From IMG/VR virus record IMGVR_UViG_2695420624_000002, positions 1-18,279 of that record: a DNA stretch of 18,279 nucleotides; one strand, 5' to 3'. This document shows positions 3,499-5,062 of the stretch, piece after piece. This stretch comes from a virus. Taxonomy: Duplodnaviria; Heunggongvirae; Uroviricota; Caudoviricetes. The translations under genes were made by a program, and so were the position numbers. Each line of letters begins with the position of its first letter. Within the stretch, counting starts at the first letter, position 1. Below the pieces are notes generated by a model that was given only the letters and a program-made list of their open reading frames with translations, was not told where the DNA came from and did no database searches.

Positions 3499-4803
3499 TC
3501 AGCTGATACTGATCCCTGCCGTGGATTTTTTCATGACCACAACCAGTAAATCACTGATGTACGTTGTCGGCGTCCAGTTGTTCGCACCGGCCGACGACAC
3601 ATTAAACGTCAGGGTGACATGACCCCGCCCTGCCGGCATATCTATCACCGATGAGAACACCCGGCTGACATCCGTTGCCGGTTCATGGAAAATCTCAACC
3701 CCGTTCTTCAGCACCTGCAGCTTACAGGTGGAATACCAGTACGACTGCTGATTCGGGCTGTTGAAATTCTGGTGTTTCGTCCCGCGAAACAGCACCGGGG
3801 GAATGATAATCTGCCGGTCGAAGCCCTGGTCATCGTAAACTGTGACGGTTACCGTCCCGCTGGCATAACTGTTATTCCGGGGAAAGGCTTTCCCCACCGT
3901 CTTCACCAGGTCGCCTTCAATCTGGTTTGCAGACAGTTTCCCTCTGATGACACAGTTCTCGTTAATGGTGACATTATTGAGCGTGCCGGTATTCGCGGTA
4001 ATTGCTCCGCTGATATCCGCGTTCCTGGCTGTCAGCTTCCCTTCCGGCGTCAGGGAAAACGTCGGGGGATTGCCGGACGAGGTGATACTCACCGCAAACA
4101 GCCGCTTCAGGAACACATCGTTCATGAACAACTGATTCCCCTGCGCCACAAATAACGGCGTGGTGTTGCCGTCCTCCGGGTTAATCATCGCAATACGGTC
4201 AGCCAGCAGCAGTATGTTGCTCAGGGGCTGGCCATCAGTATCCTCAATCCCCGCTCCAATACCGGCAACATAGGGTATGCCATTTTTTGTTTTCTGTACC
4301 TTCAGCATGTAAAGTGCAGCAAGGTCATCATTTGTGTCCTTCTGCACGCGCTGTATCTGCTGAATGGTGGCGCTCTGGTCTTCCAGCGTTTTACTGACCG
4401 TCTGTGTGATTTCATTGCGGGTTTCGGTGATGGTGGTCTTCATCTCCGCCATCTCATCCGCAAGCTGGCTGTTGTCTATCAGCTCCCACAGCCCCTGAGC
4501 CAGATGCAGTTTTCCTATTTTTTCCCGAAACAGCCCCAGATACCCTTCTGCATCATTGCTGGCCCGGCCCCACCGCTGACGTGGTGTATGACACACCCGT
4601 TGTGATTTTTTCCATCTGATGTATGTCTCCGTCACCGCCGACAGAAAATGAAAGTAAAGAAAAACAAAAAAACCGCCAGTGTCACCCACTGACGGCCAAC
4701 TCCGGGAGCCGTGATTATGGCATTCAGGCTCTGCTAAAAATGCCAGATAACATTCCGGCCTCCCCTGATTCAGGTTATAAATGACACAATATCTTGACAA
4801 CAC
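3499..4803 (-). pseudogene. J: C-terminal fragment of tail-tip host-specificity protein J; N-terminal ~800 residues missing
   Basis: Roughly the C-terminal 300-340 residues resemble the lambda J C-terminus as recalled (...[27 protein letters not shown]...[11 protein letters not shown]...[20 protein letters not shown]). The first ~90 codons of the track ORF have no J-like character and overlap the intergenic repeat modules. Full-length J is >1100 aa and there is no room for it before nanS-p at 5063. Confidence 0.65.
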
Positions 4804-4870
4804 CCGTCACTGTCTGTCAGAAAATATACCGCCAGGCATAAGTATCATGTGAAATCCAACTATCCTTCTG

Positions 4871-4913
4871 AGCCAGCACCTCTCCACCGAAAGTCAGTGC
4901 TGGCTGTTTTTTT
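4871..4913 (+). terminator. Plus-strand hairpin plus T-run (module 1 terminator-like element)
   Basis: AGCCAGCAC ...17 nt... GTGCTGGCT followed by GTTTTTTT; oriented opposite to all neighbouring genes. Confidence 0.4.
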
Positions 4914-5020
4914 CCTTAATAAAGCATCTGTAACTGAAACAATCCGCATATTGATAATATATTGACAGGCATCATTGCTGTCTGTGAAAAATAAGTCTCT
5001 ACAAACATATAAGGCCTTTT

Positions 5021-5062
5021 AGCCAGCGTCTTCTTTCAGGTCAGTCGCTGGCTCTTTTTTTA
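5021..5062 (+). terminator. Plus-strand hairpin plus T-run (module 2 terminator-like element)
   Basis: AGCCAGCG ...16 nt... CGCTGGCT followed by CTTTTTTTATT; the stem sequence is a paralogue of the 4871..4905 stem. The T-run abuts the nanS-p stop codon. Confidence 0.4.

Follow-up and report, generated by a model that had tools for sequence, protein, structure and literature searches.

A probable tandem pair of PasA/PasC-family small-RNA genes in a defective prophage

The DNA analysed here (the window) is the 18,279-nucleotide Caudoviricetes sequence that corresponds to positions 1 to 18,279 of the IMG/VR record IMGVR_UViG_2695420624_000002. On its plus strand, the gap between nanS-p, which encodes a sialate O-acetylesterase, and a truncated holin gene carries two related modules (4794-5064), each composed of a promoter-like block, a short body and a hairpin followed by a T-run. 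They are very probably two adjacent paralogous genes of the PasA/PasC family of small RNAs (sRNAs), both of which would encode Hfq-dependent, trans-acting RNAs. An initial annotation, made from the letters alone, had described the TTGACA hexamers, the CTGTCTGT blocks, the hairpins and the T-runs; all of these were found again. Its proposal that they belong to duplicated sRNA genes of the plus strand is supported, and both genes can now be named (PasA/EcOnc51 for module 1 and EcOnc52 for module 2).

Module 1 begins with an exact consensus -35-like hexamer, TTGACA (4794..4799, plus), which is unchanged in all collected PasA/PasC-type alleles, most loci having been found through that very motif. 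The block CTGTCTGT lies exactly 10 nt past either TTGACA (4810-4817 and 4978-4985), and the repeat period of both elements across the modules is 168 bp. The spacing, initially described as identical, is so up to CTGTCTGT but not for the A-rich block that follows, which is offset by 1 nt (CAGAAAAT in module 1 versus GAAAAAT in module 2). The module 1 block CTGTCTGT-CAGAAAAT (4810..4825, plus), common to module 2, is a candidate extended -10 region or operator, with a TGn (4815-4817) ahead of CAGAAA at an 18-nt spacer. It contains no canonical TATAAT and is not called in a sigma-70 consensus scan; its function is putative. The sRNA itself (~85 nt) would extend over 4829..4913 (plus), its ends being carried over by alignment from NC_011601.1 743499->743415, and 30 nt separate the end of TTGACA from the position matching the PasA 5' end mapped in enteropathogenic Escherichia coli (EPEC). 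Its intrinsic terminator (4871..4913, plus) consists of a 9-bp stem (AGCCAGCAC at 4871-4879 and GTGCTGGCT at 4897-4905) followed by U7, the T7 ending at 4913. The 5' arm of this terminator overlaps the PasA seed GCCAGCACCU (4872..4881, plus), which is conserved in the window. In 7 distinct alleles, every position of the stem is paired (100%), and a single compensatory change, from C-G to U-A, is seen; covariation support is thin because the alleles are very similar.

The inter-module spacer (4914..4961, plus) has an AT-rich stretch, ATATTGATAATATA, immediately 5' of the -35-like hexamer of module 2 (TTGACA, exact match, 4962..4967, plus). The conserved block common to module 1 follows (CTGTCTGT-GAAAAAT, 4978..4992, plus), together with an inverted repeat GACAG-N9-CTGTC. 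If independently initiated, the module 2 RNA would be ~67 nt long (4996..5062, plus, with a putative 5' end); it corresponds to EcOnc52 and to the EPEC entity 'pasA.E2348C_0688.IGR', and is also the 3' part of a 236-nt PasA read-through isoform. The module has a specific stretch, UCUCUACAAACAUAUAAGGCC, carries GCCAGCGUCU where PasA has its seed GCCAGCACCU, and is predicted to fold into a single-stranded 5' region of ~25 nt followed by the terminator (z = -3.7). This terminator (5021..5062, plus) abuts the nanS-p stop codon; its hairpin (AGCCAGCG.../...CGCTGGCT) spans 5021-5053, its T7 ends at ~5061, and it shares the AGCCAGC/GCTGGCT stem with the hairpin of module 1. On the minus strand, CAGAAGG and AAAAGGCC lie past the hairpins, no U-runs are found, and the terminator scan makes calls on the plus strand only. 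A role as bidirectional terminators for the convergent nanS-p thus finds no support.

PasA (pathogenicity-associated sRNA A) was described in prophage PP2 of EPEC E2348/69 as an Hfq-dependent RNA seen by Northern blot and RNA-seq (Pearl Mizrahi et al. 2021, PMC8550237). Its coordinates are NC_011601.1 743499->743415 for the major form (85 nt) and ->743264 for the minor one (236 nt) (PMC8550237, Table S6). On alignment to the window, the PasA 5' end falls at 4829, and the major and minor forms end at 4913 and 5064, respectively. The published Northern probe, GCCAGCACTGACTTTCGGTGGAGAG (PMC8550237), is the exact reverse complement of 4880-4904 (25/25). Terminator 1 is identical to that of E2348/69, as is the seed, which was derived from the target motif obtained by sequencing of interacting RNAs after their ligation (RIL-seq; PMC8550237, fig. 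S5 text). Position and orientation are alike, the promoter block is alike except for two substitutions, and the E2348/69 locus also has a second module 168 bp downstream. The two sequences differ mostly in the first ~40 nt of the RNA (11/42 positions, ~25%), a difference described for the co-dominant allele PasA-2 (bioRxiv 10.64898/2026.05.13.724894). Module 1 is a pasA allele that fits this published description; among the collected loci, the window allele (52 occurrences) is about as frequent as that of E2348/69 (48).

A second published dataset covers the same DNA. EcOnc51 (Sakai Sp12) and EcOnc52 (Sakai Sp4) are clusters obtained by Hfq crosslinking and analysis of cDNA (CRAC) by Tree et al. 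2014 (PMC4104026). The Sp12 locus aligns to the window with zero differences, and EcOnc51 falls at 4857-4933, where it covers the seed and terminator of module 1 and runs 20 nt past the latter. On the probe, the seed, the terminator, the 3' stem-loop with its poly-U and the synteny (between a SASA esterase and a class II holin, convergent with the esterase), module 1 belongs to the PasA/PasC family. Its expression as an ~85-nt Hfq-dependent RNA is extrapolated from the E2348/69 allele and its binding to Hfq from the identical Sakai sequence. The comparison with Rfam and with the EPEC and enterohaemorrhagic E. coli (EHEC) sRNA catalogues that had initially been recommended thus returns no Rfam family, and catalogue entries under the names PasA, EcOnc51 and EcOnc52.

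EcOnc52 (1181998-1182075, minus) maps to 4996-5073 of the window, with a sequence identical to that of Sakai Sp4, and covers module 2 from the putative 5' end to 10 nt beyond the terminator. In Sp4, IS629 removed module 1 and module 2 was kept with 22 nt upstream of its TTGACA. In EPEC, the stretch was recovered as 'pasA.E2348C_0688.IGR', which has 5 RIL-seq partners including escD, is RNA2 in 100% of its chimeric fragments and has a U-tract of 7, these last two features being sRNA hallmarks for the authors (PMC8550237). Its chimeras end at E2348/69 positions 743267-743294, and it was merged with PasA as the 236-nt isoform (PMC8550237). Although their sequences are identical to the window, EcOnc51 and EcOnc52 are crosslink clusters and not mapped transcripts, and neither was Northern-tested in PMC4104026. 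Both are listed as 'homologues of PasA' in PMC8550237, whereas EcOnc52 matches module 2 and not PasA proper. A full-text literature search for EcOnc51/52 found no paper, and the EDL933 Cappable-seq supplements, searched for transcription start sites, contain no matching sequence strings.

The relationship between the two modules rests on several comparisons. No match to the composite motif is expected by chance (0 in 200 shuffles of the window), and the global alignment of module 1 with module 2 scores 92 as against 46.5 +/- 5.7 for shuffled sequences (z ~8). When PasA-type modules from other loci alone were used to build an nhmmer profile, it matched module 2 at 4966-5060 (E = 0.005) over model positions 5-119 of 120, the next best match in the window having E >= 0.16. 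Module 2 is therefore homologous to PasA over promoter, body and terminator, as a distant pasA paralogue that has a promoter block of its own. As this homology is distant, surveys based on BLAST would miss module 2. Zhu et al. mention neither module 2, nor the promoter, nor the 236-nt form (bioRxiv 10.64898/2026.05.13.724894), and their BLAST filter (>75% of query length) would miss so diverged a paralogue.

Whether module 2 is transcribed from its own start is less firmly settled, an independent initiation being slightly favoured. The distance from the -35/CTGTCTGT block to the RNA 5' edge is alike in both modules, the end of TTGACA lying 30 nt from the mapped PasA end in module 1 and 29 nt from the start of the EcOnc52 crosslink cluster in module 2. 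The number of RIL-seq fragments under activating and non-activating conditions is 4983/116 for PasA, 1728/91 for PasC and 119/54 for the module 2 entity. As these ratios are not proportional, pure read-through would not predict the module 2 counts.

The main alternative does not give module 2 the rank of a gene: it would be no more than the 3' extension carried by the 236-nt read-through isoform of PasA, and the promoter-like block would be left over, inactive, from an ancient duplication. This is a real possibility, albeit the less probable one. Pearl Mizrahi et al. scored a single start with ends at 743415 (major) and 743264 (minor), and Table S6 of PMC8550237 gives both isoforms the same 5' end. 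A 236-nt band is detected by the PasA probe, so that read-through exists. EcOnc51 runs past terminator 1, and the -10 region of module 2 is non-canonical. On the other side, the promoter block of module 2 is preserved as well as that of module 1, which is evidently expressed, and the condition ratio of module 2 in RIL-seq is ~20-fold off that of PasA. Furthermore, module 2 is intact in several independent rearrangements lacking module 1: wherever module 1 has been replaced, the junctions lie at ~4940-4946, and no replacement leaves the module 2 -35 with less than 16-22 nt of upstream sequence.

Several points weigh against an independent start of module 2, or more generally against the expression proposed here. 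Both promoter blocks fail the sigma-70 consensus scan, as no -10 with the conserved A2/T6 is present at a spacer of 16-18 nt; the caution initially expressed about a non-canonical -10 was justified. Read-through from PasA demonstrably occurs. The module 2 sequence is identical at 3 places in Sakai and, therefore, EcOnc52 reads may be multi-mapped and originate in other copies that are read through. According to Zhu et al., cleavage of a longer transcript may produce the mature PasA 5' end (bioRxiv 10.64898/2026.05.13.724894), although this end is common to both isoforms in Table S6 of PMC8550237. The published PasA probe sits in the module 1 terminator loop and therefore cannot detect an RNA made of module 2 only. 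The ratio of RIL-seq counts reflects target abundance as well as sRNA level, and transcription in this particular genome is extrapolated from other strains. Primary initiation at either promoter block, and especially at that of module 2, is thus inferred.

Where IS629 or one of two unrelated sequences has taken the place of module 1, the three junctions fall within ~6 nt of each other, just upstream of the AT-rich stretch. This clustering at 4940-4946 could be due to an insertion or recombination hot spot or to selection for the module 2 promoter. A plasmid match to the module 2 promoter alone turned out to be a phage remnant with an insertion sequence (IS) in module 2, and not another gene using this promoter.

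The initial annotation had suggested that the CTGTCTGT block could be a regulator binding site. A rather unlikely reading along these lines makes it, together with the GACA(G)...CTGTC inverted repeat around it, the operator of a regulator common to both modules and not a core promoter element. It would account for the fact that CTGTCTGT is identical in both modules while the 10 nt between the -35 and CTGTCTGT differ completely, for the GACAG-N9-CTGTC repeat of module 2, and for the strong dependence of PasA and PasC on conditions (4983/116 and 1728/91, as above). Nevertheless, no regulator is known, the motif was matched to no known binding site, and the block sits at the position of an extended -10 (TGn), which is explicable without a regulator. 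An operator would also be compatible with two transcribed sRNA genes and does not exclude them.

Taken as a whole, the functioning of the two genes can be viewed as follows. In module 1, RNA polymerase would most likely start ~30 nt past the perfect -35, using the A-rich, possibly TGn-extended -10, and would stop at the 4871-4913 terminator, giving the ~85-nt RNA. In module 2, the same promoter block and a related terminator would give the ~67-nt Hfq-bound RNA (EcOnc52). A minority of module 1 transcripts would pass terminator 1 and stop at terminator 2, giving the 236-nt isoform. Both RNAs would then base-pair in trans in an Hfq-dependent manner. The PasA seed GCCAGCACCU, at the foot of the terminator (5' arm), would pair with CUG(R)UGCUGG sites; module 2 has GCCAGCGUCU and a different single-stranded 5' region, so that other targets are expected. 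Any physiological role of the modules would likewise be inferred, no physiological function having been published for any PasA/PasC family member.

One site complementary to the PasA seed lies next to the modules: CUGGUGCUGGA, at the 3' end of the nanS-p mRNA (5085..5095, minus). Two esterase genes of E2348/69, E2348C_1246 and E2348C_0688, contain this site too, where it is among the PasA RIL-seq motif sites (PMC8550237), and the 8-mer CCAGCACC is present at both 4873 and 5086. This 8-mer, the core of the PasA seed, occurs six times on the plus strand of the window (4873, 5086, 7290, 7305, 7439 and 10227) and is absent from the minus strand; mRNAs read from the latter accordingly carry GGUGCUGG. 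Clustering of PasA targets was rejected as the cause of this bias, which probably reflects common codon strings in minus-strand genes (GUG-CUG in two sites). An RNAduplex scan of the window was disregarded, as it gave implausible energies (~-59 kcal/mol) with very large loops.

The position of the modules raises the question of an action in cis. They lie wholly within the Q-antiterminated late unit and oppose it, any late transcript would be perfectly complementary to both RNAs, and PasA chimeras with the adjacent esterase mRNA were recovered. It is nonetheless improbable that the modules act mainly on the nanS-p-to-holin late transcript, by transcriptional interference or antisense pairing. 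The 41 distinct RIL-seq partners of PasA, mostly core-genome mRNAs (PMC8550237), document an action in trans. In addition, the esterase site at 5085-5095 lies outside the antisense overlap and pairs via the seed, and the locus is kept in defective prophages like this one, in which the holin and lysis genes are deleted.

Finally, the idea that the modules are chance resemblances or remnants of protein-coding genes has practically no probability left, as the shuffle and profile statistics speak against chance, the module sequences are identical to experimentally detected RNAs and the stretch is intergenic in every annotated record examined. The only open reading frames (ORFs) wholly inside the feature are mechanical ones of at most 38 aa, and no record examined annotates a wholly internal gene, so the derivation from a known coding gene that had been named as a potential refutation finds no support. 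The coding features under the matches are only the esterase gene, which overlaps the query ends, or one unnamed 'conserved hypothetical protein' (FJ184280.1).

The history of the family was approached with a set of loci collected independently of the motif, by anchoring on the C-terminus of NanS-p. Among the 57 evaluable loci, 48 are tandem, 8 have a single module and 1 is empty. The single-module loci are of three kinds. The PasC type has a module-1-like promoter and 5' half, and a module-2-type terminator abutting the esterase stop codon. A second type has a PasA-2-like body and a terminator with the stem AGCCAGTAC/GTACTGGCT (a compensatory change), the esterase stop codon following directly after the T-run. 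In the third, module 2 is alone, module 1 being disrupted by an insertion or replaced. One tandem locus, L071, carries a PasC-type terminator on module 2, and the PasC-type terminator is therefore an allele of terminator 2.

PasC of E2348/69 (prophage PP5) shares the promoter block of the window modules. Its 5' half is close to module 1 alleles. At the other end it has a module-2-type terminator, with the AGCCAGCG... stem, which, as in module 2, is immediately adjacent to the esterase stop codon. It differs from the window in being a single module, the 168 bp between the two repeats being absent. As its 5' half is near module 1 and its 3' end and flank are near module 2, PasC looks like a recombinant or deletion product of two repeats and not like their ancestor. 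Module 2 was rejected as PasC proper, since it lacks GTACATCTACCCG (the PasC probe, 5' half), shares only TTTTAGCCAGCG and has an unrelated 5' region; the window would thus hold two parental-type modules and no PasC as such.

Zhu et al. state that tandem duplication did not produce the pasA copies, and that PasA and PasC descend from a common ancestor (bioRxiv 10.64898/2026.05.13.724894). The tandem layout sits uneasily with the first of these statements. Our broader proposal, to which we give about even chances, is that the pasA locus is a two-gene tandem cluster, that module 2 is an independently transcribed third paralogue with its own seed, and that PasC and the second single-module type are deletion products of unequal recombination. 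If true, it would revise two views: that module 2 is a mere tail of PasA, and that the diversity of pasA owes nothing to tandem duplication.

Substitutions between alleles concentrate in the 5' body of module 1 (2-29% of positions differ), while the promoter block and terminator differ by 0-14%, and by at most 11% in all but one allele. In this family, the 3' domain is therefore conserved and the 5' domain variable. The sRNA genes, or the DNA next to them, repeatedly contain IS elements (IS629/IS3 family and others), at loci L080, L106, L107, L208 and Sakai Sp4 (L005, 2631-3703). In L080 (IMGVR_UViG_2522572021_000002, ~1530-2990), the IS lies inside the 3' arm of the PasA terminator, which would yield the published 'PasA-3' allele (PasA without terminator).

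Tandem duplicated sRNA genes are known elsewhere, as in OmrA/OmrB of E. coli and PrrF1/PrrF2 of Pseudomonas. The window modules resemble them in being adjacent paralogues, each equipped with promoter-like and terminator elements, that are conserved at the ends and diverge in the middle, and PrrH spans PrrF1-PrrF2 by read-through as the 236-nt PasA isoform spans the two modules. They differ in that the window element is phage-borne and multicopy, and in that independent transcription of the second copy is here a proposal. The anti-sRNAs AgvB and AsxR (RF02702 and RF02703) are also short, Hfq-bound and encoded in the prophage late region convergently to the late transcript; their 5' domain varies, and their terminator domain, at the 3' end, is conserved. 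They differ by their location between stx or the moron site and nanS-p. An identity with AgvB/AsxR was rejected, as the locus is another one and neither family gives a match at the gathering score in the window or at E <= 10 in 4600-5200. PasA and module 2 have 0 sRNA partners in RIL-seq (PMC8550237), and no sponge activity is known for either. HnrS (EcOnc10-12), a different 66-nt sRNA, was also rejected, as was STnc100/PasD, whose RF02076 match lies elsewhere (7051-7223, minus) and is a separate gene, as in E2348/69. At the gathering score and at E <= 10, Rfam gives no family for either module, the only matches being chance snoRNA or viral ones with E > 1.

Of 5426 complete E. coli genomes, 679 have module 1 and 677 have module 2 (~12%), with a median of 3 copies. 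About one of these genomes in eight thus has the locus, mostly more than once, and it is enriched in EHEC/EPEC as well as in phages encoding Shiga toxin (Stx) 1. The region is carried by 29 phage records, 22 of which are Stx1a-converting (99.7% match for H-19B), in agreement with Zhu et al. When 185,579 species, each represented by one genome, were scanned for the motif, the tandem pair was found only in Escherichia albertii, apart from one chance match, and a scan of viral contigs gave more than 119 loci.

Among the matches listed for complete E. coli genomes, no RefSeq feature lies under either module, and Rfam 15 has no model for PasA, PasC or module 2, so readers working from sequence alone are likely to keep rediscovering the locus. 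A covariance model for PasA/PasC/module 2 would remedy this annotation gap. As the modules are already known as PasA/EcOnc51 and EcOnc52, the observation being confirmed and its interpretation supported, the residual novelty is modest: the reading of module 2 as a tandem paralogue, the chimeric origin of PasC and the tension with the statement that excludes tandem duplication. A second, diverged copy and a chimeric PasC would nonetheless allow a cleaner definition of the family for target prediction and for the design of deletions; a 'pasA' knockout that leaves module 2 may not be null.

Both neighbours of the modules are on the minus strand, and the modules oppose the late operon, as initially reported. 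The convergent neighbour is nanS-p (5063..6913, minus; Pfam SASA, DUF1737 and DUF6645), on which RefSeq agrees at identical loci. The initial annotation was right about nanS-p but had placed a fragment of the tail tip gene J directly on the other side, where a 5' remnant of holin gene S (~17 codons, 4565..4615, minus, start codon at 4613-4615) intervenes; the holin is the usual left neighbour of pasA. The normal holin upstream region is kept in the left flank, canonical holin homology breaks at ~4565 and joins there the C-terminal J fragment (3499-4565, minus; Phage_Tail_Tip and Ig_GpJ_C). The prophage is defective, since holin S is cut after ~17 codons and fused to the J fragment; the lysis, head and most tail genes are deleted, yet neither sRNA module is damaged. 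Along the late strand of intact relatives come Q, tRNAs, (stx), nanS-p, the intergenic region with the modules, holin and lysozyme, in this order. The modules therefore lie inside a Q-dependent late transcription unit and point against it. The synteny esterase-pasA-holin-lysozyme agrees with the published layout, the nanS-p/holin interval being where lambdoid prophages of the Stx type have this sRNA family.

Between the modules and the holin start, two hairpins resembling intrinsic terminators are found on the minus strand (4671-4697 and 4742-4759). The stronger one has 11 bp followed by TTTTTGTTTT, and from its end it is 55 nt downstream to the holin ATG. Both may serve to stop transcription that is divergent or not antiterminated.

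On the far side of nanS-p, the STnc100 match (RF02076, 100.8 bits, 7051-7223, minus) is followed by a terminator, GGCUGCGCAUGGCGCGGCC+U8 (~6996-7024, minus), that resembles the 3' end of PasD (Pearl Mizrahi fig. S5). The region 6995-7223 (minus) is the PasD/STnc100-type partner that usually accompanies pasA. Between it and three tRNA genes located upstream of nanS-p (7997-8243, minus), the 7230-7830 region (minus) contains a frame with an in-frame stop (TAG, ~7684-7686), then a small hydrophobic ORF. By position only, these might correspond to the TerB-family pseudogene and the DUF3927 gene of related prophages. At the position corresponding to the tRNA genes, the PV15-279 prophage has annotated tRNA-Ile, tRNA-Arg and tRNA-Arg, the usual set of the Stx-phage late region.

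Further away, a sok antitoxin RNA (RF01794, 113.5 bits, 11162-11336, minus) lies in the prophage early/late junction region. A 70-aa ORF just downstream on the same strand (11012-11224) may contain the hok toxin frame, and the two would form a hok/sok type I toxin-antitoxin system. Downstream of the J fragment (minus), genes encoding an NleB/SseK-family type III effector, a tail fibre and a Lom outer-membrane protein (4-981, 1432-2748 and 2810-3466) constitute a typical exchangeable effector locus of EHEC/EPEC.

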